Virus record (IMG/VR): IMGVR_UViG_3300045988_060953
Coordinates: 1-45,115 of that record
DNA length: 45,115 nt
Direction: 5' to 3' (one strand)
Origin: a virus
The notes under the pieces are model-generated. The model searched no databases and was not told the DNA's origin. It worked only from the letters and a program-made list of their open reading frames with translations. The translations under genes were made by a program, and so were the position numbers. Shown piece by piece: positions 3,913 through 33,046 of this stretch (its first letter is position 1; every line of letters starts with the position of its first letter).

Positions 3913-6900
3913 TTACCGAGAAGATTTCCAGTTGGACGAACTCGCCGCCCAGAATGCGTCTTTCATGGCATCGCTCATGTCGCTGTCATTCAGCCATGCA
4001 CGGGCCTCGCTCTGGTTAATGCCCGTCTTGCCGTCCGTGTTCGCGTACTTCCGGTAGGCAATCCAGTTCATCAGCCCATCAATGCCATACTGATTGTAGA
4101 TGTCAACGCGCTTCCGCTCTTCGGTGCCAACGGAGAAGTCGGGCACGATGTCCAGAGCTGCAATTTTGCCTGCGGTGCCGTACAGCTCCGGGATAAGCTC
4201 CACTTGCTGCTCTTCGGTGTAGCGAGAATCCAACACGGCTTCTGCCATGTCCTTGCGCAGTTGGCCTTGCTGTGTTGCAAAGTCGGTGTACTCTTGCGGA
4301 GAAAGCTGGTAGGTGTGCTTTTCCTTGTCAACTGTCCAAGACAGCTTCTTTTCGGCAAGCTCCGGAATAACTTCGTCGTTGCCGGTGCTGTTCGCCAGAT
4401 CGAGCAAGCCAAGCTGCACCGGATCGTCCGTGGTTTCGGAATAGTAGCCGGGGGAGAACATGTTGTAGGCAAGACGGCCAACAAAGTTCCCGCCGGGGTT
4501 TTCTTCCGTGTCGCCGAATGCATCAATATACGGTTGGCTGGTTTGCGACAAAAACGGAATTTTGTTCCGCATTTTGTTGGCCGTATAACCCAAGTCTGAT
4601 TCAATGCCGGTCGTGCCGCTATAGGTGCTGCGCCGAATGGGGTCAATGGTTCGGGCAACCTGTCCCAGAGACGTTGGCACATACTGCGTTGCATACCCGG
4701 TAATCGCTTCACGTGTCAATCCAGGAATGAAACCATCTCGGGAATACCGCAGGTTTTCAAACGAGTTGTTCATGCCCTGCAGGAATGTGTTTGTAATAAG
4801 CGGCTCAAGCATGTGCGTTGTCGCATCGTAAATGTCGTTGAGCGATACATCGTCATCCGTCGTCAGGTTTGCAAATTCTGCACCGGCAAGCATTGGGATA
4901 GCCACAGAGTTGGCCCAACTAATGGTGTAACTATGCAGTTTCCCGTTCTCATCCGCTAGTTGGAGGCTGTACTCCTGTCGGCCTTCCATGTCCGCCTTTA
5001 CCTTGTCGTCGTCATCAATTCCGCCGGTGAGCAGTCCCTTGCGTGCCAATATTGCGCCAAGCACGAACAAGCTGGTACCTGTTACAGATGCTGCTGCGTG
5101 GTCAAGCATTACATTGAAATTACCGCTTCCCGTTGCCACCTTTGCGCCTTCTATCGCGGTAGAAGCAAATCCAAGCGGGCTGTACTGCATCGCTTGTTTG
5201 GCAACGTTGATGGGAGTTTTCACGAACGGGAGTTCGCCTTCGGCCAACGCATAAAAGAATTTATGGTGCCAACCGTCCGCTTCGGCAAGGCTGCGCTTTC
5301 CTTTCGCAATGATCGTCGCTGTTTCAGAATCAGCATGGAATGTGTTGATAAACGCCTGTGTCAAAGCATGAGCACGCGCCTTATCAAGGATCTGCATACT
5401 TGCTTCGTCTGTTGCGCTGAAAATGCTTTGGTCTAGGCCGTTTGCCTTGAGGTACTGAGCCAGAGATCGTGCGTAATTGTTTTTCAGACCGGCAACGCCA
5501 AGAACGCCCGCTTGGGTAGACTTGTCGCATTGAGACGTAACCCAGTCTATCGCACTATCCATTTGCTTGTTGATCCCACGCAGGCCATCCAGCATCCCAA
5601 AGAAACCTTTGTAGTCACCACTTTCCAACGACTTCGAGGAAGCTTCGGCCCGTCCGTCTAAATACGCAAACAAGCCCCGAACGATCGTTCCGCTGTCATC
5701 TGTAAGGTGACTTTGCCAGAGGTTCCCCTTTTGCTGCATGGATTGCGCAAAATCAATTTTGTCGCTTCCCGTTGCAAGCTGGCGATAGTTCGCATCTGCG
5801 TCCGCAGCGCAAGCCGAAAGCAACGCACGGCCTTTCGGAGTAAACGCACTAACAATAGATGTCGTGCGTTCAAACCCGGACTTGTCACGCCAATTGTGCT
5901 TCTTTGCAAATGGCAGGTCAAGAACCTTGTTCACAAGGACTTCTTCTCCGGCAAGTACAATGTCTTTCATGCGGGCATTTGCGCCTTGTGTAATGTTGCC
6001 TCCGGCGTTTACAAGGTTTGTGCGAGCGTTGAGAAGCATAGACGTGAACCGCAAAGAATTGATTGTATCCCACCAAGAAGAGGTTACGTTCTTTGCCGCA
6101 ATTGTCGCCGCCTTGTTTTCCAGATCCACCCGCTCCCGGCTGTTTGCGGGCAACGCTTCCGCCTGCTCCGTTAAGTCAAGGATCTGCTGGCACTGCTCCG
6201 CAGTCAAGGGCTGTACGCCAAACTTCGACGCGGCATAGGCTTTCACATCTTCGTTGTCGTAAATGCCCATGCGCAAAAGCCCCAAAAATTGGTCGTGCGT
6301 GGACTTGCTCGTTTTGCCTTTCCCGCCCCGGATGGCTTTCAGGTTTGCGTCCGCCGCTTCTGACAATGCTTTGGAATACTCGTTCATGGCCATTTCGGCA
6401 ATACGTTGTGCTTGCGTGTCGTCCATGTCGAAGGTATCCTGAATGCGCTCCTGAATTTCTCGAAGAGTGGACTGTTTGTCCCTACGCCCTTTTTTGACTA
6501 GGGTCTTGAAGTCAATCCCTTGATCTTTGGTGTACTTGGACACAAGTTGCTTTATTGTATCTTTCCCGTACAAGCCGGATTCTCCGGCATCATTAAAGAA
6601 AGCTTGCAGGCGGCTGCTCATGTCGGCATTGTCTTTATACCTTTCGACAAGTGCTTCCTTTGCCGCTTCCCATGCCTGCGTGTATGTCTCCTGATTGTCC
6701 AATGCGGTTTGCAACTTCTGTTCGACCGTCAGCTTCGGCTTTTTAGGCCGTGCGCCTTTCTCGGTGTCGCTTGTCGCCATTTTGGTCAGCTGGGAAAGCA
6801 TCTCGCTTTGCACAACGTCCTCAACGCTGGCTTCTTTCCCGTCCGTTGCGTACCGATTTACGGCAGCTGCCAGCTTGCGCCCCAACACGTCCTCAACCGA

Positions 6901-9900
6901 AGGCTGGTCAGTCTCGTCCGCAACTTGCTGCTGGACAGTTTCAATGGCTTTCTGCACAGCGTCATTAGCTTTTTGAGTGGCTGTGTCCTCTGCGTTTGCA
7001 ATGGCTGTTTCCACGTCACTTTTGTACTGATCGAATTTTCGCTTGTTTTTGCCATTCGCTACACGGTCAACAGCGGTCTTGATGCTCTTCTGCGACTGCA
7101 TCACGGCGGTCTCCGGAGTGGTAAACTCCTGCGTCATTTGCAGCGCTTGCGCGTTCATGGTGTTGGACTCACTAATCCGCTGGGTAAACTTCATCTTCTG
7201 GGCAAGGGCCTGCTTGTACGCCTCTCCGCTCTTGTCCATATCGCCCAAAGCCAAATCCCACTCGCGTAGTACGCTTCCGGCCAGCGCGGTGTCATCGGCA
7301 TCCCACTGCTCTTTACTGGTCAAGCGGGACACGATCTCGTCACGGCTTTCGGTCTCCATGCTGTTGGCCGCAATCTTCATTCGGTCTGCGTTGCTTACGC
7401 GCTCGTGGGTAAACTTTTGCTCGCCGCCTTGATCTCTCTGCACAAGAGGTTGCAGGTAATCATTGTCAGTGTCGCGCGTCATATGGCTTTGGCTAGATAC
7501 TTCGGGGCGGTCAAACTGCCGTTGTGCCGCACCTACCGTATTGGGATGATCTTCCAGTGTGGGAATGAGTTCCTGTACGCGCTGCGTGGGCATCAGTTCC
7601 GGGATGGTAGTGGCGGCTGTGGAACCCTGAGATCCTGATTCTTGCTGCCCCAATTGCGCCCTCTCGTCCAAAACACTGCGCACTGTATCAAACACCGTGT
7701 CGAAGTCATCAACAAAATCGCCGAATATGCTTTTAGCCAATTCAGGCCGATAAGCATATCCGGCAATTTGAGCAGAGAGTTCTCGTCGGAATTTTGGAAG
7801 ATTGTCTAAATCCATGAAATCCGGGTTTCGTTCATCATACCCATGCAACACTTCGTACAAATCTGTGCCTTCTCTGTACGCATTGGGATTAACCCCGGAT
7901 TCTTTCAGAGCCGCATCCACACGCGCATACAGAGCGTGGTTTTTGTGTTGAATGTTGTGCATTACCTCATGGTCGATCATGGCGGTTACAGTGTCGGGGT
8001 CAAGGGCCGCCGCATTGTTCACTACGATCGTTCCGTCCGGAAGCGTAAACATAAGACTGTTATGTTCGTTACCATCCACATAAGCAGGGCCGTCACTCAC
8101 ATCAACATCTAGCCCGTACCGTTGCTTGGCATAGTCCGCCGCCGTTCGTACCGGTGCCGTGTAGTCAGCTGCATCTGGTTGACCGTAGGTGTATCGGTGA
8201 CCATTTATTTCCCGGACCCTTTCCGGCGTTCCTCCTCCAGGTACTCGGCGAACCTGTTCAGGAACTCCCGTATTTGCTGATCCTTTTCCGGAGAAGGCGG
8301 GTTTTTCCGGTGCTTTTCCCTCAGCTCGGCGATCATCTTCGGAGAAATCCACTCCATCGAGATTCCGTCGTCCATATCCTCCTCGTGTGCCAACTTCTTC
8401 ACCTCCATCCTGCATTGCGTTGGTTTCAGTATACGGACTGTTTTCAAAGTTGTCAAACGCTTCCGTCTGCGCTTCGCGGGCCATAGCCGCATCCAGCGAA
8501 TCGCCATACAGAATATGATCCGCCACATATGCGCGCGCAGCCTTCATGCTTTCGGTGTCTACCGCTTGTACGCCGTCCTTTAGTTGGTCATATTTCTGCA
8601 CAATTTCGGCAAAAGCATCTGCGGGGTGTGCAAACAAGTCAACATCCGGAAAAGCCTCTCCCAGTTCCATAACCGCCTGGTCAAGGCCACTCGTTGAAGA
8701 ATCTCCCGCTTTCACCAGATTCAGGCCATACCTGCGGTTGATTTCGGTTCTCGTCGCGCCCAGCGCGTTTTCAAGGTCGCTCAGTTCGGCATCTGTTACA
8801 CGCACCGGTTTTTTCAGAGCTTCCCGCAATGCACGCACATAGTCAGTATCCGTATTTTCTACAAAAGCACTTTCCGGAAATATTTTTTCCGCCAGCGCCT
8901 GAGCCTCTTGCTCAATCGTGGAAGTATCTTCTCCGTTTTGCACCGCATCCAGGAAACGGTCTCTAATGTCCGCCAGCTGGCGCGTATATACGCTTTTACC
9001 GTCTTTCCCTGTGATCTCTGCCGCAATGTCGCGCGATGTTGCTCCGCCAATGTATCCAGGATCCTCTGCGTGGTACCCAGCAGGAACATAACCCGCATCC
9101 TCACTTAAAGTGGGAATTGTCTGAATTTGCGCTTCGGCTTTCAGCGTCTTTCTCGTCTCGCTGCTGGTATCCGGCAGCTTCACGCCCGTGGCCTCTTCAA
9201 ACGCCTGCCGAAGTTCCCCGCCTGGTTTCAGCTGCTCAATCTGCGCGTTGGTCAGGTTGCCGTTATGGTATGCATCCACAACCGCATCAAGTCCGGGAAG
9301 CGCTTCTTGCCCGGCTTCCAAGGGCTGCCGTGCGGCTTCGGTGTCAGGTGATACCGGTTCTGCCTGCTGTACATCCGTGTCCACAGGGGCATTCTCTTGC
9401 GCTTCACGCAAACGATTCACGCCGCTGCCAATAAGAGAGCTTCCCGCCGCGCTGATTGCGCCGCCCAGTGCGCCGCCAAGTGCCTGCTGCCCAAGTTCAG
9501 CAAGGCTGAAGTTTGCATCCGGATCTCCGGCCAAAACGTCGAGGCCGTAGTCTGCTGCATACTCAGAGGCTTCCTGCCCACCTTCGCTCAGTGCTTGACG
9601 CGCCATTGCCCGCAGTACGCCGGGGCCGCCGCCCGCAATCAGTTCCGCACCCTGTTCAAGAGGGAGCTTATTGGTCACGCCAGAGACAGCACCGGACATT
9701 GCACCGCGAAGAACCGCTTGGTTAAGCGGAATACCGCGCTGTTCCAGTTCGTTCACCCGGTTGCCTGCCGCGCTTACGCCCATGAGGGTGGGAATCAAAA
9801 CGGGGGCAGCTTCTGGCACGGCCGCCGCAGCTGCAAAGGCAGGAAGGTTCTGCGCGACACTTCCGATTGTGCCAACCACGAATCGACCGGTGTTATCAAG

Positions 9901-27229: not shown

Positions 27230-27361
27230 ACTTCTTCCTTTCCCTTGTGCGCAGACCCATTGCAGGGCCTTACTGGGCGGAGGCTTTCCCGCTTGCCCAT
27301 CTATTTGCACGCACAACCCCATTCCCGCCCTCCGGGCTTATCCTGTGCCCGGCTCACCCAT

Positions 27362-27435
27362 TGGTTGGGCTGGCAGGTGTCGAACCTGCTATGTGGGAGT
27401 CAAAGTCCCATGCCTTACCGTTTGGCCACAGCCCA
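27362..27435 (-). tRNA. tRNA-Gln(TTG), CCA encoded
   Basis: Hand-folded: acceptor TGGGCTG/CAGCCCA; D arm GCC-AAACGGTAA-GGC; anticodon arm TGGGA-CTTTGAC-TCCCA; T arm GCAGG-TTCGACA-CCTGC; A-CCA. Confidence 0.85.
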
Positions 27436-27539
27436 ATAAAAAAGCCCCGCATGGTACGCATTGTGAAGAGGCGCGCGGGGGTGCCTGCCGTGAACTCCCG
27501 CTTGCGCCCCGGCGGGATATTTTAACGGGTCATCGGCTT

Positions 27540-27615
27540 TGGAGCCGCCAGAAGGACTCGAACCCTCGACCTGCTGCTTACAAGACAGCCGCTCTACCAA
27601 CTGAGCTATGACGGC
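27540..27615 (-). tRNA. tRNA-Thr(TGT), CCA encoded
   Basis: Hand-folded: acceptor GCCGTCA/TGGCGGC; D arm GCTC-AGTTGGTA-GAGC; anticodon arm GCTGT-CTTGTAA-GCAGC; T arm GAGGG-TTCGAGT-CCTTC; T-CCA. Confidence 0.85.
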
Positions 27616-28607: not shown

Positions 28608-28928
28608 TTATGTGTCTTGTCTTGCCTGCCTGATAGCGTCAGCTAGCAGCCGTGCTGCCGCCTGTGCTGGTGTCTCGCCGTCAGCCTCTAGGCCCTGGAC
28701 TGCATCCGATCTCAGGCTAAGCCGGATCCGGTCGCCGTCTTCGGTGGCCTGTGCGCCGTGGGCCATCCGTGCCCGGACTGCCGCGAGCACGTACCCTTGT
28801 AGGCTCTGCCCGGCTGCCGCTGCCGCCGCTCTGATGCTCTCGCCCTCAGGGCGCAGCGGCTTTATCATGATCTGATCACACTTTGCATTATATTTTGCGT
28901 TGCCGCGTCGTTTTGCCTCGCTTTGCAT
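28608..28928 (-). CDS. Ribbon-helix-helix (Arc/CopG-like) DNA-binding protein
   Basis: 106 aa. KYNAKCDQIMIKPLRPEGESIRAAAAAAGQSLQGYVLAAVRARM fits the beta-alpha-alpha RHH pattern. First gene after the minus-strand promoter at 28952-28981. Confidence 0.6.
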   Translation of the reverse strand: MQSEAKRRGNAKYNAKCDQIMIKPLRPEGESIRAAAAAAGQSLQGYVLAAVRARMAHGAQATEDGDRIRLSLRSDAVQGLEADGETPAQAAARLLADAIRQARQDT

Positions 28929-28951
28929 GGTTATACCTCCTTATATAGGAG

Positions 28952-28981
28952 AGTATACCACGCTCCACCGGTTCCCGTCAA
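28952..28981 (-). promoter_or_regulatory. Sigma70-type promoter for the RHH-terS transcript
   Basis: Minus strand reads TTGACG (28981..28976), 18 nt, TATACT (28957..28952). Confidence 0.6.
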
Positions 28982-29070
28982 CGTGTACAAACTGCACAAT
29001 TTCCCGTTAACCGATTTGTGAGATTCTCCAAACTTCCCGTTAACGGGTTGACAACATACACGCTAACGGG
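28972..29070. promoter_or_regulatory. Array of TTCCCGT(C/T)AAC repeats, including the palindrome CCCGTTAACGGG
   Basis: Direct copies at 28972, 29001 and 29034. Perfect 12-bp palindrome at 29036-29047 abutting the -35 of the plus promoter. An inverted half-site TAACGGG at 29064-29070 lies inside that promoter's spacer. Confidence 0.7.
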
Positions 29071-29076
29071 TATACT
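29048..29076 (+). promoter_or_regulatory. Sigma70-type promoter of the plus-strand island
   Basis: TTGACA (29048-29053), 17 nt, TATACT (29071-29076). Confidence 0.75.
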
Positions 29077-29128
29077 CTAGTCATAGCAAGCGACACAGGG
29101 CCGCAAGCAGAAGAGCAAGGAGGACGAC

Positions 29129-29467
29129 ATGAGCAAAGCACTTACCACCGAAGAGCTCATCAAAAAGATGGCGTGGCACGTATCCCGCGAGGTCAAGCAC
29201 TACGCCTCCGACTTTGAGATCGACCGCGCCCAGCTGACCGAGGCCGTCGAAACTGGCCGCTATGGTCAGTACATCTGGATCACCCGCAACTGCGGCACGC
29301 ATCTCGTGCCGGTCGGTATCGCAGCCACAGACCCCGACCAAAGCGCCGAGCTGCTGGCAGCTATCCGGCGCACATGGTCGGACGCCGAGCGCCGCGAGTA
29401 CTGCATCACCCTGGGCCCCTGCAGCCACTCTTTCCAGCCCCTCCGGCAGAGGGAGGCGCAAGCATGA
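29129..29467 (+). CDS. Hypothetical protein (island gene 1)
   Basis: 112 aa. RBS AAGGAGGA. No motif recognised. Confidence 0.55.
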   Translation: MSKALTTEELIKKMAWHVSREVKHYASDFEIDRAQLTEAVETGRYGQYIWITRNCGTHLVPVGIAATDPDQSAELLAAIRRTWSDAERREYCITLGPCSHSFQPLRQREAQA

Positions 29468-29556
29468 GACTCACCCGCATAGAGTGCCTGGCTTTGGGCT
29501 TTGCCTGGGGGCTTACGCTCCCGGTGCTATGGCTCCATTGCCTGGGCATGATCTAA
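29464..29556 (+). CDS. 30-aa hydrophobic peptide (island gene 1b)
   Basis: ATGA-coupled to gene 1. MRLTRIECLALGFAWGLTLPVLWLHCLGMI. Its stop (CTAAGA) is the 5' edge of intergenic repeat copy A, exactly as in copy C. Confidence 0.4.
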   Translation: MRLTRIECLALGFAWGLTLPVLWLHCLGMI

Positions 29557-29587
29557 GATCCGCAAGGCCGGCGCATAACGCGCCGCA
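29554..29587 (+). ncRNA. Structured intergenic element, copy A (5' module only)
   Basis: CTAAGATCCGCAAGGCCGGCGCATAACGCGCCGC shares the 5' module and first hairpin (CGGCGC-ATAAC-GCGCCG) with copies B and C, then diverges. Confidence 0.5.
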
Positions 29588-29683
29588 TCTAACCCCGGCA
29601 CCCGGACACTTTAGCAGGGCTGCACCGACTAAAGCAACCTCGCCCCATCGTCCCAAAAACAAACACAAACGGAGGTACACAAA

Positions 29684-29899
29684 ATGGCATGGCTTTACAT
29701 CCCCGCCGAGACAGGCGAACGCCTCGAAACCATCTGCGATCAGCACTACAACCCCGGACGCGGCGCGTGTGACTGCCCGCTCTGGCCCGCCTGCAGCTAC
29801 TCGAACGATCTCACAAAATCCAGCGCAGAGAACACCCGCATTTTTGAGCAGGGCATGGCCGCCGCTCTGGCCGCTCTCGACGACGAAAACAGGAGGTAA
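29684..29899 (+). CDS. Hypothetical protein (island gene 2)
   Basis: 71 aa. RBS ACGGAGGT. Cys motif GACDCPLWPAC. Confidence 0.55.
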   Translation: MAWLYIPAETGERLETICDQHYNPGRGACDCPLWPACSYSNDLTKSSAENTRIFEQGMAAALAALDDENRR

Positions 29900-29904
29900 A
29901 CAAA

Positions 29905-30189
29905 ATGGCATCCATTGAACGCAAAATCCCCGGCATCCACGCCGACAAGCCCGGAGAGTACGCCTACTGCTACGAGATGCAGCAGGCCCCCACAGGCTGC
30001 GACCACTCCGCCGATCTTTCCTTTTATGGCAAGCACTACTTCCTGCGCCCCCTGCGTGACGACCTGCCCCCGCTCCATGGGCGCGGCATTACCTACGACG
30101 CAGCAGATGGCACCTACATGGTCACGCTCCGCGCCTATGACAAGATCAAAGCGCAATACAAGGTCAAGCGCGAAACTTGCCTTGATTGA
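29905..30189 (+). CDS. Hypothetical protein (island gene 3)
   Basis: 94 aa. RBS CAGGAGGT. Confidence 0.55.
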   Translation: MASIERKIPGIHADKPGEYAYCYEMQQAPTGCDHSADLSFYGKHYFLRPLRDDLPPLHGRGITYDAADGTYMVTLRAYDKIKAQYKVKRETCLD

Positions 30190-30260
30190 CCCGCAAGGCC
30201 GACGCATAACGCGCCGCTGGTGCAAGTCCAGCCGCCCATCCGGGCGGGCGCTCATGGGTT
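30187..30260 (+). ncRNA. Structured intergenic element, copy B
   Basis: TGACCCGCAAGGCC-[GACGC ATAAC GCGCC]-[GCTGG TGCAAGT CCAGC]-[CGCCC ATCC GGGCG]-GGCGCTCATGGGTT. Starts at the stop codon of gene 3. Confidence 0.6.
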
Positions 30261-30297
30261 GAAAGCCCTACCGCAACGCCACAAAGGAGGACACATC

Positions 30298-30654
30298 ATG
30301 AAAAGACTTTTTACCCGCGAGGACGTCACCCCGTACCGCCGGGACTACACCGCCACCGTGCCCACCGCGAAGGGTGAGCGCCTCATGGTGGAGCTTATCC
30401 GCTGCGAGGACTGCAAGAGCCCGCGCTCTACTGCCGCTATCTGGTACAAGCGCGGATACACAAATACCCGGCTTGCATCCTGGTGGGCCGTGGACACATA
30501 CGCCACGGAGCCAGACGGCAGCTGCTGGGGCCGGTATAACCCCACCCACATCCCCGGAGAGAACAAGCTCAATTTTGAGTGGGTTCTCCCCGCGACCGAG
30601 GAGAATGCCGAGAAAATTCTGGCCGAGGTTGCCCGGCTGGCGGGCATCGTGTAA
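30298..30654 (+). CDS. Hypothetical protein (island gene 4)
   Basis: 118 aa from ATG 30298 (RBS AAAGGAGGA). WWAVDTYATEPDGSCWGRYNP motif of unknown function. Confidence 0.55.
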   Translation: MKRLFTREDVTPYRRDYTATVPTAKGERLMVELIRCEDCKSPRSTAAIWYKRGYTNTRLASWWAVDTYATEPDGSCWGRYNPTHIPGENKLNFEWVLPATEENAEKILAEVARLAGIV

Positions 30655-30658
30655 GTAA

Positions 30659-30686
30659 ATAGGGAGGGGCTTCCGCCTCTCCCTAT
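30659..30686 (+). terminator. Strong hairpin (12-bp stem, no U-tract) separating two sub-operons of the island
   Basis: ATAGGGAGGGGC-TTCC-GCCTCTCCCTAT with one G-U pair. Confidence 0.45.
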
Positions 30687-30805
30687 CCTCACACCATAAA
30701 TATATCACATTCACGTGCGTTTTTGTAGTGTGGGTAGCTGTTCCCAACTGTTGCATTTGCAACGGCTGCACAAAAAAGAATCTCAAAATTTAGGCAAATT
30801 GCGAA

Positions 30806-30834
30806 TTGCACCACCACCCAATGGGTGGTATAGT
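30806..30834 (+). promoter_or_regulatory. Internal island promoter with an operator palindrome in its spacer
   Basis: TTGCAC (30806-11), 17 nt, TATAGT (30829-34). The spacer contains CCACCCA-A-TGGGTGG (30814-30828). A second palindrome GTTGCATTTGCAAC lies at 30750-30763. Confidence 0.65.
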
Positions 30835-30878
30835 GTGGACAACGAGGAAGCCAAACGAAAAAACAGGAGGACAAAGCA

Positions 30879-31082
30879 ATGACGAAGATTAAAGACGGCT
30901 GGCACCGCATTTGCGGCGCAGATGTGTACGTGGAGAATGGACGCATCCTGCGCGGCCTGAAGAACGGCGGCACGGAGCCCGCTTACCCCTACAAGCCGGC
31001 ATCGAAGAAGTACGGCGGCGGCTGGGACATCGGCACCCCGTCCGTGTCGGCATTCCGTCGCGGTCCCTGGGTACTCATGTAA
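30879..31082 (+). CDS. Hypothetical protein (island gene 5)
   Basis: 67 aa. RBS CAGGAGGA. Confidence 0.55.
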   Translation: MTKIKDGWHRICGADVYVENGRILRGLKNGGTEPAYPYKPASKKYGGGWDIGTPSVSAFRRGPWVLM

Positions 31083-31101
31083 AGAGGAAGGAGAACAGAC
31101 G

Positions 31102-31365
31102 ATGAAAAAAGCCGAGTTGAAAGACGTTGCCACCCGGTACGGGATGGGCATTATCCGCGAGGAAGTCACAAGCAAAGGCGTCGGGCTGTACCTCGTGACT
31201 GAGGAGGACATCCCGGAGCTGGATGCCCTAGCCAGCACACCCCCGTTTTCCGCAGCGCCGGGAGCGGTGGACGCAACGAAAGAATACAGCCCGTGCGACA
31301 ACACCCATACTTACCGCGTCTACTGCCCCTCAAACTGGTTTGACCTGTGGGGATGGGCAGACTAA
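31102..31365 (+). CDS. Hypothetical protein (island gene 6)
   Basis: 87 aa. RBS GGAAGGAGAA. Confidence 0.55.
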   Translation: MKKAELKDVATRYGMGIIREEVTSKGVGLYLVTEEDIPELDALASTPPFSAAPGAVDATKEYSPCDNTHTYRVYCPSNWFDLWGWAD

Positions 31366-31438
31366 GACCCGCAAGGCCGACGCGCAAGCGCCGCCGGTGC
31401 AAGCCCGGCCACCCCGTAAGGGTGGGCGCTCATGGGTT
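31363..31438 (+). ncRNA. Structured intergenic element, copy C
   Basis: TAAGACCCGCAAGGCC-[GACGC GCAA GCGCC]-[GCCGG TGCAAGC CCGGC]-[CACCC CGTAA GGGTG]-GGCGCTCATGGGTT. Hairpins 2 and 3 each differ from copy B by a compensatory base-pair change. Confidence 0.6.
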
Positions 31439-31462
31439 ATCCAAAAGAAGGAGGAAAGAACC

Positions 31463-31882
31463 ATGAAAACAGAAATCGTCGTCTCCATTGGGGGCGCTGT
31501 CAAGCGTTCGCCCAACCGTGAACCGGACGAGTTCGCCTACTTCACGCAGGTGTGCGGTTTTTCGTTCACTGCGCTCCCCGTACCTGACGGGTGGCAATGG
31601 AACATTGGCTTCCAGGGGGACGCGCCGCACCGCAAAAGAGTGACAATCTCCCTGCCGGACTTCATTCTCAAGGACAAGGTATGGGAGTTGCATTCTGAGT
31701 ACCGCACGGACGACGGGCTCGGAGACCTTGTCGTAATCACTTGCGACCCCGTCCGCGTGTGCGGAAGCGTGGAGGCGGCAATAGATGCAGCGGTCAAAAC
31801 GATTGTTGTGTCCGCGCCCACAAAGTCAGGCAAGCGGGAAAATATCCCGTTTACCATCGAGGCAGTATCACCCATCTGGTGA
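31463..31882 (+). CDS. Hypothetical protein (island gene 7), anti-CRISPR candidate by position
   Basis: 139 aa from ATG 31463 (RBS GAAGGAGGAAA). Its stop lies 4 nt before the solitary CRISPR repeat. Confidence 0.55.
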   Translation: MKTEIVVSIGGAVKRSPNREPDEFAYFTQVCGFSFTALPVPDGWQWNIGFQGDAPHRKRVTISLPDFILKDKVWELHSEYRTDDGLGDLVVITCDPVRVCGSVEAAIDAAVKTIVVSAPTKSGKRENIPFTIEAVSPIW

Positions 31883-31885
31883 TGT

Positions 31886-31918
31886 GTCGTCCCCCGTGCG
31901 GGGGACGTGGATTGAAAC
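31886..31918 (+). CRISPR. Solitary type I-C-like CRISPR repeat unit (no array, no cas genes)
   Basis: GTCGTCCCCCGTGCGGGGGACGTGGATTGAAAC, 33 nt. 8-bp stem CGTCCCCC/GGGGGACG with loop GTGC and a GTGGATTGAAAC tail, as in known I-C repeats (for example GTCGCGCCCCGCACGGGCGCGTGGATTGAAAC). Single copy, in sense orientation within the operon. Confidence 0.85.
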
Positions 31919-31944
31919 AAGATATCAACAGGAGGAAATCAAGA

Positions 31945-32262
31945 ATGTGGAACAAAGCAGAACTTTTTGCAATGGCCCAAGAGCAGCCGAAGGAAATCTT
32001 TAAAAGCAATGTAACCCTGAGCATCCCGGACAACGCGCCGGGCTGTGTTGATCTCGACGCAGAAACCGAACGCTTGTCCCGCTTTTGGGACGTTGCGCAC
32101 ATGACTGTGCGGGAACTCGCAGAAGCCACCGGAATGAGCCAATCTGCCTTTGCCCGGGCCGCTTGCATCCCTCTGCGCACCATGCAAAACTGGTGCGGGG
32201 CGCAGCGGAATTGCCCGGATTATATCCGCTTTTTGTTGGCGGAACATTTCGGGCTGATCTAA
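31945..32262 (+). CDS. HTH regulator, Aca-like (anti-CRISPR-associated type) by context
   Basis: 105 aa. RBS AGGAGG at 31931-36. HTH MTVRELAEATGMSQSAFARAACIPLRTMQNWCGAQRNCPDYIRFLL, the XRE/antitoxin-type pattern IP.RT.QNWE.G.R.P. Confidence 0.6.
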   Translation: MWNKAELFAMAQEQPKEIFKSNVTLSIPDNAPGCVDLDAETERLSRFWDVAHMTVRELAEATGMSQSAFARAACIPLRTMQNWCGAQRNCPDYIRFLLAEHFGLI

Positions 32263-32265
32263 AGT

Positions 32266-32290
32266 GAGGCGCGGGGGTGTCCCGCGCCTC
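32266..32290 (+). terminator. GC-rich hairpin (attenuator-like) after the HTH gene
   Basis: GAGGCGCGGG-GGTGT-CCCGCGCCTC followed only by TT. Confidence 0.4.
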
Positions 32291-32311
32291 TTGTCAAAAG
32301 GAGGTGCACCC

Positions 32312-33046
32312 ATGCCGAAGGCGCAAAAGAAGTACGAATTCACCGGTGAAACGAAAGAATTTTCCGGACACACCCTGCACCGCATCCGCGCAGTGCGGGA
32401 TTTTGACAACGAGGCTTGCCATGTAAAGGCGGGAGACCTGGGCGGGTGGATTGAAAGCGATAAAAACCTCGACCAAGACTATACCGCATGGGTCACAGAC
32501 GAGGCCATGGTTTACGGAAAAGCATCAGTCGCCGAAGAGGCGTTGGTGTCAGGGCATGCGCAAGTCTTTGGCGAAGCCATTGTAACAGGTGGCGCAGTGG
32601 TCACCGACAACGCCCGCATTTTCGGTGACGCGTTTATATTGGACTTTGTGAAAATTTACGGCGACACCCAATTTTGCGGTGATACAATGGTGTCCGATGC
32701 AGTGTATGACCACGGCATCGTGATGCATACAGCCGAGCGAGACGTGAAGATGTACTTTATCCGGGAGCCGGGTGTTGTGTGGAACGGCGAATGCTCTCGC
32801 GACGCAATCACCGATGACGGGCGTTACATGGAGATCACGTGCAAAGCCCCAGACTTAAAGCGAAAACCGGGCGAAAGTGAGGACGAGTACGAGGCCCGCT
32901 TGATTGACGCCACAGAATGGGAAACTCCCATCCGAGTTACTGACATCCACAAAGGCGGAAAGCGGACCGTCGTTGCGGAAAATGGCAGTGCAACATTTTC
33001 TCCGCTGTGCTCCGGCATCACTGTATGGCACCCGGATGAAGAATAA
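32312..33046 (+). CDS. Beta-helix repeat protein (hexapeptide-like A-x-V-x-G repeats), function unknown
   Basis: 244 aa from ATG 32312 (RBS AAAGGAGGTG). KAGDLGGWIESDKNL then VYGKASVAEEALVSGHAQVFGEAIVTGGAVVTDNARIFGDAFI. Confidence 0.55.
   Translation: MPKAQKKYEFTGETKEFSGHTLHRIRAVRDFDNEACHVKAGDLGGWIESDKNLDQDYTAWVTDEAMVYGKASVAEEALVSGHAQVFGEAIVTGGAVVTDNARIFGDAFILDFVKIYGDTQFCGDTMVSDAVYDHGIVMHTAERDVKMYFIREPGVVWNGECSRDAITDDGRYMEITCKAPDLKRKPGESEDEYEARLIDATEWETPIRVTDIHKGGKRTVVAENGSATFSPLCSGITVWHPDEE

Follow-up and report, generated by a model that had tools for sequence, protein, structure and literature searches.

The repeated element of about 75 nt that separates small genes in this DNA is, by sequence, a twister-sister self-cleaving ribozyme (Rfam RF02681), that is, a real functional RNA of a family already described. 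The window, by which we mean the whole stretch of 45,115 nt that was analysed, contains two complete copies (B and C) and one broken remnant (A). It belongs to a temperate (gut) phage with genes for an integrase, large terminase, portal, major head protein and DnaB helicase. Copies B and C very probably operate as twister-sister ribozymes in polycistronic early or accessory transcripts of this phage, and their likely role is to cut the polycistronic mRNA between gene cassettes.

Family assignment and structure of the repeats

Both complete copies match RF02681 over the whole model (positions 1–81), with 79.9 bits for copy B and 78.1 bits for copy C compared to a gathering score of 34 bits. The corresponding E-values over the whole window, 6e-17 and 2e-16, are far beyond chance. 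The initial annotation had been unable to match the element to any known RNA family; these full-length matches show that it belongs to one. Our own model, R1, gives 86.5 bits (copy B) and 82.6 bits (copy C) on the + strand, compared to 18–23 bits on the – strand. No further ribozyme copies or classes were found in the window with Rfam at E<=1, and no further copies with R1 with the filters off. More than 150 twister-sister copies, lying between unrelated flanks, were detected in a set of at least 120 viral contigs.

The initial description of the sequence itself (spacer starts, tail, compensatory pairs and loops) holds throughout the window. Spacers A, B and C open at the stop codon with (C)TAAGA/TGA followed by (C/T)CCGCAAGGCCG(A/G)CGC. 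The 15-mer CCGCAAGGCCGRCGC occurs exactly three times, at 29560, 30191 and 31369, always on the + strand, and the tail GGCGCTCATGGGTT exactly twice, at 30247 and 31425. Between B and C, a U-A pair in hairpin 2 is replaced by C-G and a G-C pair in hairpin 3 by A-U, and hairpin 1 has AUAAC as its loop in B, and GCAA in C. These three hairpins correspond to P3, P4 and P5 of the ribozyme, and pairing of the 5' module with the 3' tail (P1 and P2) closes the four-way junction. The 5' module and the tail are present as described, not as separate modules but as the two strands of P1/P2 and of the catalytic internal loop.

In a solved four-way-junction structure of twister-sister, cleavage takes place at the C62-A63 step, and an A63U change abolishes activity (PMC5660989). 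The loop nucleotides conserved according to that study, G5, C6, A8, G9, G59, C60, U61, A63 and the G29-C37 loop, are all present here. Both B and C contain the internal-loop strands GCAAG and GCUCAU with the C-A scissile step. The conserved P4 loop (G-UGCAAGY-C), which makes long-range contacts, reads GGUGCAAGUCC in B and GGUGCAAGCCC in C, and its variable position is C in the Rfam consensus. At first sight GGUGCAAGUCC is reminiscent of the box of a cobalamin riboswitch or of the T-loop of a tRNA; there is no such Rfam match in the region. The family identity of B and C is thus established at the level of sequence and homology to solved structures, and the same homology places the predicted cut in each copy (Table 1).

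Covariation was assessed in 50 diverse phage copies from viral contigs, aligned with MAFFT without reference to structure. Paired cells amount to 95.2%, G-U pairs included, compared to 32–54% in slid controls; 16 of the 23 pairs change on both sides, and none of 500 shuffles matched the observed covariation. The set was gathered by a pattern fixing 25 core bases, so the invariance of those columns is imposed, while no such constraint was placed on P1, P3, most of P4 and P5. This check on homologous copies, which the initial annotation had proposed, together with the strand asymmetry of the model score, bears out its view that structure is conserved over sequence and that the element represents a functional RNA rather than mere duplication. 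The annotation had also named folding energies no better than those of shuffled sequences as a sign against such a fold, and formally this is what was found: z-scores were –0.90 and +0.21, not significant. The consensus fold nevertheless costs only 2.6–3.0 kcal/mol more than the optimum. We judge the minimum-energy test uninformative, as it has little power on an RNA of 70% G+C and is outweighed by the covariation. Homologues of g5 and g8 retain their N-termini even where another ribozyme sequence or a hammerhead lies upstream, and the element is therefore not coding.

Table 1 Positions of the ribozymes, their parts and the neighbouring features in the window
Feature	Position	Strand	Remarks
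Sigma-70-like promoter TTGACA-17-TATACT	29048..29076	+	11/12 consensus matches; consensus match only
Copy A, truncated twister-sister relic	29558..29586	+	No Rfam match at E<=10; R1 15 bits, E 0.07
Orphan TAA, putative leftover stop of a lost gene that once preceded RAGATH-5	29590..29592	+	11-codon 'ORF' here
RAGATH-5 RNA motif	29602..29654	+	Rfam RF02685 61.5 bits, model 1-53, gathering score 50
g4 (94 aa)	29905..30189	+	Last base of TGA stop is first base of copy B P1
Twister-sister ribozyme, copy B	30189..30259	+	Rfam RF02681 79.9 bits; R1 86.5 bits
Copy B P1	30189-92/30256-59	+	
Copy B loop L1	GCAAG 30193-97, GCUCAU 30250-55	+	
Copy B P2	30198-200/30247-49	+	
Copy B hairpins	P3 30203-13, P4 30216-32, P5 30233-46	+	
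Predicted scissile bond, copy B (GCUC^AU)	30253..30254 (C30253/A30254)	+	Mapped from C62-A63 in PMC5660989
g5 (118 aa)	30298..30654	+	Start 44 nt after predicted copy B cut; ribosome-binding site AAAGGAGG
g7 (87 aa)	31102..31365	+	TAA stop ends 1 nt before copy C P1
Twister-sister ribozyme, copy C	31367..31437	+	Rfam RF02681 78.1 bits; R1 82.6 bits
Copy C P1	31367-70/31434-37	+	
Copy C loop L1	31371-75/31428-33	+	
Copy C P2	31376-78/31425-27	+	
Copy C hairpins	P3 31381-90, P4 31393-409, P5 31410-24	+	
Predicted scissile bond, copy C	31431..31432 (C31431/A31432)	+	Mapped as for copy B, from PMC5660989
g8 (139 aa)	31463..31882	+	Start codon 31 nt after predicted copy C cut

The truncated copy and the adjoining RAGATH-5 motif

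Copy A keeps the 5' strands of P1, L1 and P2 together with P3, and its sequence ends after this hairpin. It lacks P4, P5 and the cleavage-site strand and has no Rfam match even at E<=10. The initial annotation had correctly noted that only the 5' module and hairpin 1 are kept; we read the copy not as a short version of the element but as a dead, non-functional remnant outside the family. A deletion would have taken the 3' two-thirds of the ribozyme together with the following gene. In relatives L049 and L079 a complete ribozyme follows the homologue of g2, the gene upstream of copy A; in L022 and L088 only about 10 ribozyme nucleotides separate the g2 homologue from the next gene. These relics show that the ribozyme is dispensable at a given junction.

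The RAGATH-5 motif lies between the copy A relic and g3, 29 nt from the start codon of the latter. Elsewhere, RAGATH-5 copies begin 4–18 nt past the stop codon of a long ORF. A composite motif made up of copy A and RAGATH-5 was considered and rejected, as elsewhere RAGATH-5 directly follows a stop with no twister-sister 5' module. A search for an intact ancestor of the copy A junction gave 0 exact matches to the RAGATH-5 variant of the window in viral contigs.

Gene layout, exchange at the junctions and proposed role

Ribozymes B and C are situated just past a stop codon and about 30–45 nt before the next start codon. In 91% of 114 non-redundant twister-sister contexts, an ORF of 40 codons or more on the same strand has its stop 2–24 nt ahead of P1 (mode –2). 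The median spacing between the cut and the following start codon in these contexts is 45 nt, and the ribozyme copies are always co-oriented with the genes. The sigma-70-like promoter would drive g1-g2-relic-RAGATH-5-g3-g4-ribozyme B-g5. Among the neighbouring small proteins, the only match in Pfam and PHROGs is a weak helix-turn-helix in g9, and the PHROG families matched by g10 (244 aa) have no assigned function. Compared to catalogued phages, the island has one weak 256-nt match and the structural genes have none; this phage and its relatives are known from metagenomes only. A solitary CRISPR repeat at 31885-31917, 450 nt downstream of the ribozyme element, is a candidate RNA anti-CRISPR.

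We propose that each complete copy folds into a four-way junction, with P1 and P2 formed by the 5' module and the 3' tail, plus P3, P4 and P5. In the active site the P4 loop (GGUGCAAGYCC) would contact the internal loop (GCAAG/GCUCAU), and the 2'-OH of the C in GCUC^AU would attack its own phosphate. The upstream mRNA product would have the compact ribozyme body at its end, terminating in a 2',3'-cyclic phosphate, and the downstream product would begin with 5'-OH-AUGGGUU, 31–44 nt before the start codon. We infer that B and C cleave in vivo and that their purpose is to separate neighbouring gene cassettes, a natural insulator through which every cassette would have a defined 5' end, stability and translation of its own. 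Of the functions initially suggested, a processing element was the right kind, and a put-like antiterminator and a Cas decoy have no support.

Different motifs occupy the same positions in related phages. In the phage and its relatives g8 is preceded by twister-sister, a hammerhead or a gutted relic, the hammerhead being of type II (59.6 bits) in L011, at 7258-7321, and in L079, and in relatives either twister-sister or RAGATH-5 lies upstream of g3. Given this interchange, cleavage and not the fold would appear to be what matters. That motifs are interchangeable at the same positions is already discussed in the literature: a review takes the same view for hammerhead and twister, and processing of polycistronic transcripts has been proposed (PMC6765202). 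As to which gene the ribozyme travels with, the evidence is mixed. Identical ribozymes are found in 17.5% of the pairs that share only the downstream flank, compared to 3.2% of those sharing only the upstream flank; in the window, however, it is the upstream gene that P3 of copy B goes with.

The initial annotation had also suggested a cassette-boundary recombination site. Such a site would act at the DNA level, either as an attC-like folded single strand or as a conserved homology patch for cassette swaps between phages. The suggestion has a real correlate. Among 339 pairs of ribozyme contexts with at least one common flank, 196 share only one, and the element is therefore often located at mosaic junctions. 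The g4 flank upstream of copy B is common to 13 loci whose downstream flanks are unrelated, the g5 flank on its other side is common to L079, whose upstream flank is unrelated, and some breakpoints fall inside ribozymes, as in copy A and in a gutted relic in L022 (between ACCGCAAG and CTCATGGG). Recombination is nevertheless not likely to be the primary function. The G-U pairs, the score about 60 bits lower on the reverse strand and the constant co-orientation with transcription fit RNA, not duplex DNA, and as the unrelated hammerhead and RAGATH-5 sit at the same junctions, shared sequence is not required for mosaicism. The sole integrase match, to a general phage integrase family (PHROG; one ORF scanned), is 26 kb away. 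We consider a dedicated recombination site very unlikely, and it is plausible that the conserved core helps shuffling as a by-product.

Even less probable is a structured non-catalytic RNA, whether it stabilises a 3' end, serves as a decoy for a protein or Cas, or acts as a put-like antiterminator. The compact G+C-rich fold directly after stop codons would suit such an RNA, as would an island that also holds a separate CRISPR-repeat mimic, but all the nucleotides that make up the catalytic core of a proven ribozyme class are conserved, and a hammerhead, also a self-cleaver, replaces the element at the same position in relatives. Furthermore, the element resembles no CRISPR repeat, and it lacks both a U-tract and a terminator-like arrangement. 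Two full copies in the window that differ at few positions could also suggest chance similarity or a recent, local and functionless duplication; this is refuted by E-values of about 1e-16, by the strong covariation and by the numerous viral contigs that carry copies between unrelated flanks.

If the twister-sister copies cleave as proposed, ribozyme-bounded segments with 5'-OH and 2',3'-cyclic phosphate ends might conceivably, though we give this little credence, be rejoined or circularised into stable circular or reshuffled cassette mRNAs. This could occur by a reversed ribozyme reaction, with the AUGGGU 5' end pairing with the ACCC strand of the next ribozyme, or through a host RtcB-type ligase. 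Several related loci have single genes of 270–970 nt bounded by two ribozymes. The sole hint is a weak one: in 29 of 32 cases neighbouring copies have cross-compatible P1 strands, compared to 74% for random pairs, and the pairs are non-independent and P1 has only 4 bp.

Comparison with known systems

For annotation, the identity of the repeat is settled and exact predicted RNA ends are available for four phage genes; no new class is added to ribozyme biology. The phage and its relatives form a natural comparison set for the purpose of phage-borne ribozymes through their g8 and g3 junction variants, which could show whether cleavage alters downstream gene expression and whether RAGATH-5 does the same job.

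Twister-sister was reportedly first described by Weinberg et al. in 2015 (Nat Chem Biol 11:606). The copies in the window have the same five helices, internal-loop and P4-loop sequences, predicted C-A step and four-way junction as RF02681 (PMC5660989). There is no substantive difference, as the P3 and P5 loops differ among all members, and the phage-associated setting is also shared. The twister ribozyme resembles twister-sister in how its helices are connected and shares some of the conserved loop nucleotides with it (PMC5660989). It has no match in the window at E<=1, nor in the region at E<=10. Twister contains two pseudoknots, and its cleavage site is on the other strand compared to twister-sister.

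The type II hammerhead (RF02276), found in phage and prophage intergenic regions, takes the same position before g8 in L011 and L079 and is also a self-cleaver leaving 5'-OH and 2',3'-cyclic phosphate ends. Its fold and active site are unrelated, and it cuts mid-motif, whereas twister-sister cuts near the 3' end. RAGATH-5 (RF02685) has the same layout, starting about 10 nt past a stop and ending 29–76 nt before the next start on the gene strand, and alternates with twister-sister before g3 homologues. Unlike twister-sister, it consists of a single hairpin with a pseudoknot between the 5' tail and the loop. According to the review, the structures other than ribozymes that the same approach yielded showed no cleavage in experiments (PMC6765202).

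Integron attC sites, too, are structured repeats, found where small gene cassettes without promoters adjoin, but they act as folded single-stranded DNA and require an integron integrase, whereas the element here points to RNA; its RNA-type strand asymmetry would argue against an attC identity. In RiboJ-type synthetic insulators, which are engineered, hammerhead-based and placed after promoters, a self-cleaving ribozyme between the upstream context and the ribosome-binding site fixes the downstream 5' end. To our knowledge, no natural equivalent has been demonstrated, and it is this same role that we propose for the phage ribozymes.

Copies B and C and the twister-sister family

Reading of 28800–32400 bore out each statement that the initial annotation had made about the sequence of the repeat. 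The three copies share the 15-mer CCGCAAGGCCGRCGC, for which the 45 kb window has just these three occurrences (29560, 30191 and 31369, all + strand); the tail GGCGCTCATGGGTT has exactly two. All three copies begin at, or a few bases from, a stop codon. Between B and C, hairpins 2 and 3 each show a single compensatory double change, and hairpin 1 differs in its loop. The annotation could match the element to no known RNA family, but it does belong to one. The whole window, scanned with the curated Rfam thresholds, gives five hits, two of them tRNA genes; copies B and C match the twister-sister ribozyme RF02681 over the full model (threshold 34 bits). We are highly confident that B and C are twister-sister ribozymes.

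Features of the island and its upstream region, in window coordinates
Feature	Position	Strand	Remarks
Half-site CCCGTTAAC	29003–29011 and 29036–29044		Second copy inside palindrome CCCGTTAACGGG
Half-site GCTAACGGG	29062–29070		
g2	29464–29556	+	ORF whose stop adjoins copy A
Copy A	29558–29586	+	5' strands of P1, loop and P2, and P3 only
RAGATH-5 motif, RF02685	29602–29654	+	61.5 bits, threshold 50
g4	29905–30189	+	ORF whose stop adjoins copy B
Copy B, RF02681 match	30186–30264	+	79.9 bits, E 6e-17
g7	31102–31365	+	ORF whose stop adjoins copy C
Copy C, RF02681 match	31364–31442	+	78.1 bits, E 2e-16

In the Rfam alignment the 5' module and the 3' tail each supply one strand of helix P1 (ACCC/GGGU), of an internal loop (GCAAG/GCUCAU) and of P2 (GCC/GGC), which together close a four-way junction; the three hairpins described initially are P3, P4 and P5. 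The loop strands of the four-way form are numbered G5-C6-A7-A8-G9 and G59-C60-U61-C62-A63-U64, the P4 loop is named G29...C37, and cleavage is placed at C62-A63 (PMC5660989). Because all of these residues are found in both copies, cuts are predicted by homology at C30253^A30254 in B and C31431^A31432 in C.

The initial annotation had held that folding energies no better than those of shuffled controls would count against the fold, and formally this is the outcome, with z-scores of –0.90 (B) and +0.21 (C). The RNA is ~70% G+C, so shuffles fold almost equally well, and the four-way consensus fold lies just 2.6–3.0 kcal/mol above the optimum. Covariation, unlike folding energy, is an informative test of the structure. 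A conserved-core pattern scan of viral contigs gave at least 154 matches in at least 120 loci, and 50 maximally diverse copies among the matches listed were aligned with MAFFT, blind to structure. Standard pairs fill 95.2% of cells (78.5% in shuffles), both partners change in 16 of the 23 pairs, and none of 500 shuffles reaches any of five measures. Sliding the partners by 1–3 columns reduces pairing to 32–54%. The invariance of 25 core bases is imposed, since the search pattern fixes them, and the covariation is carried by P1, P3, most of P4 and P5, the helices that the pattern leaves free. A covariance model built from this alignment scores B at 86.5 and C at 82.6 bits on the + strand and 18–23 bits on the – strand, and finds no further copies in the window. 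Family identity, fold and intercistronic placement on the coding strand are thereby shown, as is, by homology, where the scissile bond lies.

The ribozyme island and its deletion junctions

The window is a temperate phage, with PHROG matches to integrase, large terminase, portal, major head protein and a DnaB-type helicase. The ribozyme island comprises ten mostly small + strand ORFs (g1–g10, 29129–33046) downstream of a near-consensus promoter at 29048–29076; none has an informative family match, bar a weak helix-turn-helix in g9. The divergent promoters at 29000–29076 are surrounded and overlapped by three copies of an operator-like half-site; a repressor probably binds this region and controls the island. 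Perfect G+C-rich hairpins directly follow g5 (TAGGGAGGGGCTTCCGCCTCTCCCTA, 30661–30686, +) and g9 (GAGGCGCGGGGGTGTCCCGCGCCTC, 32266–32290, +). They have no U-tract and a terminator scan picked up neither; they may split the island into separate transcription units, of which a second could start at a TGG-TATAGT extended –10 at about 30826–30834. Just upstream of the large terminase gene, near-threshold Rfam matches to D12-methyl RNA (27320–27393, –, 50.4 bits, threshold 57) and abiF RNA (27444–27480, –, 34.1 bits, threshold 37) adjoin or overlap tRNA-Gln(TTG) (27362–27435) and tRNA-Thr(TGT) (27540–27615).

Copy A has no match in Rfam even at E ≤ 10, and scores 15 bits (E 0.07) with our model. 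The gene before it, g2, has an ATG that overlaps the g1 TGA (ATGA) and encodes a hydrophobic 30-residue peptide, MRLTRIECLALGFAWGLTLPVLWLHCLGMI, 80–93% identical in the related viral loci L022, L049, L079 and L088. Its homologues are followed by a complete twister-sister ribozyme in L049 and L079 and by only ~10 nt of one in L022 and L088. Homologues of g3, the gene downstream of copy A, are preceded by a twister-sister ribozyme in three loci and by RAGATH-5 in six, there beginning ~12 nt beyond a long ORF's stop codon; in the window a TAA (29590–29592) 12 nt before RAGATH-5 ends an "ORF" of just 11 codons. The simplest reading of the copy A junction is a deletion of the 3' two-thirds of the ribozyme and nearly the whole of the next gene, which would have fused the g2-relic unit to RAGATH-5-g3. 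An exact scan of viral contigs with the window's RAGATH-5 variant found no intact ancestor of this junction. Deletions repeatedly end within ribozymes, as in copy A, the ~10-nt stubs of L022 and L088, and a further relic in L022. The latter (~5590–5610, +) has lost its entire core, so that ACGACCGCAAG abuts CTCATGGGA, and sits roughly 100–125 nt upstream of the g8 homologue (start 5713); a CTGATGA-containing stretch after it might be a degenerate hammerhead.

RAGATH-5 copies share the intercistronic layout of the ribozymes and alternate with twister-sister upstream of g3 homologues, and may therefore do an equivalent job. Across the window and eight loci (L003, L010, L014, L017, L028, L037, L055 and L060), the RAGATH-5 5' tail covaries with the hairpin loop (CCGG/CCGG, GCGG/CCGC, TGGG/CCCA, GGCGG/CCGCC), which implies a pseudoknot absent from the Rfam structure line.

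A CRISPR-repeat mimic beside g8

A solitary CRISPR-repeat mimic, GTCGTCCCCCGTGCGGGGGACGTGGATTGAAAC (31885–31917, +), begins 2 nt past g8 (stop at 31882) and precedes the helix-turn-helix gene g9 (start 31945). It matches Rfam CRISPR-DR9 weakly (25.2 bits, below threshold) and is conserved at the corresponding position in L011, L034, L079 and L022, with stem changes that compensate one another. Within the genome collection it matches only L121 (gut Clostridiales MAG UMGS1206), where a real CRISPR array has at least 12 repeat copies at 67–68 nt spacing. The L121 repeat is the same 33-nt sequence with the loop GCAC in place of GTGC, and its commonest form ends in T, not C. The repeat appears to be type I-C-like. 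The mimic's placement resembles the acrIC5-RacrIC1 operon (PMC10651486). We regard it as a candidate RNA anti-CRISPR; g8 then becomes a candidate anti-CRISPR protein, and the host is hinted at as well.

Possible roles of the ribozymes

Among the matches listed, 114 non-redundant ribozyme contexts from viral contigs were compared. In 91% the stop of a same-strand ORF (40 codons or longer) starts 2–24 nt before P1, and in 48% a stop lies within 8 nt, compared with 6% for random positions. Copy B has the offset seen most often, –2, its stop codon sharing its final base with the start of P1. From the cut to the following start codon the median distance is 45 nt. The RNA would cut itself during or after transcription, leaving an upstream message that would keep its stop codon and end in a compact ribozyme body with a cyclic phosphate, and a downstream message that would begin 5'-OH-AUGGGUU followed by a short leader.

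The initial suggestion of a cassette boundary stands as a correlate: among the matches listed, 196 of 339 context pairs sharing at least one 150-nt flank share one only, and the upstream flank of copy B recurs in at least 13 loci with unrelated downstream flanks while its downstream flank is common to L079 only. Identical ribozymes accompany 17.5% of downstream-flank pairs and 3.2% of upstream-flank pairs, which are not independent pairs; ribozyme identity tracks the downstream flank somewhat more often, the window itself being mixed. The conserved core may act as a patch of homology. A DNA-level role as the primary function is argued against by strand asymmetry of the RNA type, by G-U pairing and by the fact that unrelated motifs replace the element. 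Religation or circularisation of ribozyme-bounded cassettes seems very improbable to us. Cassettes between two ribozymes have the end chemistry needed, and neighbouring copies have cross-compatible P1 strands in 29 of 32 cases, compared with 74% of random pairs. With just 4 base pairs in P1 and pairs that are related to one another, this evidence is weak.

Processing of polycistronic transcripts is a proposed role for such ribozymes, and gene neighbourhoods common to unrelated classes suggest that what counts is cleavage, not the particular motif; other structures from the same discovery approach did not cleave in experiments (PMC6765202). The orthologous slot upstream of g8 illustrates the point about cleavage, with twister-sister in the window (copy C) and L034, a type II hammerhead (59.6 bits, threshold 37) directly upstream in L011 (7258–7321, +) and L079 (4068–4131, –), and in L022 the gutted relic noted above, ACCGCAAG abutting CTCATGGG. 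We therefore favour a purpose as cassette separator or insulator, a reading about evenly poised between right and wrong; such a separator would make the 5' end of every accessory gene independent of its context. That a junction can do without its ribozyme is shown by the relics in L022 and L088 and counts against any essential role. As a natural set for comparison, the phage and its relatives are of some use in asking what phage ribozymes do. No tested feature of the element departs from the family definition: its family, its setting and its neighbours (hammerhead and RAGATH motifs) have all been described, and as such it is already known.
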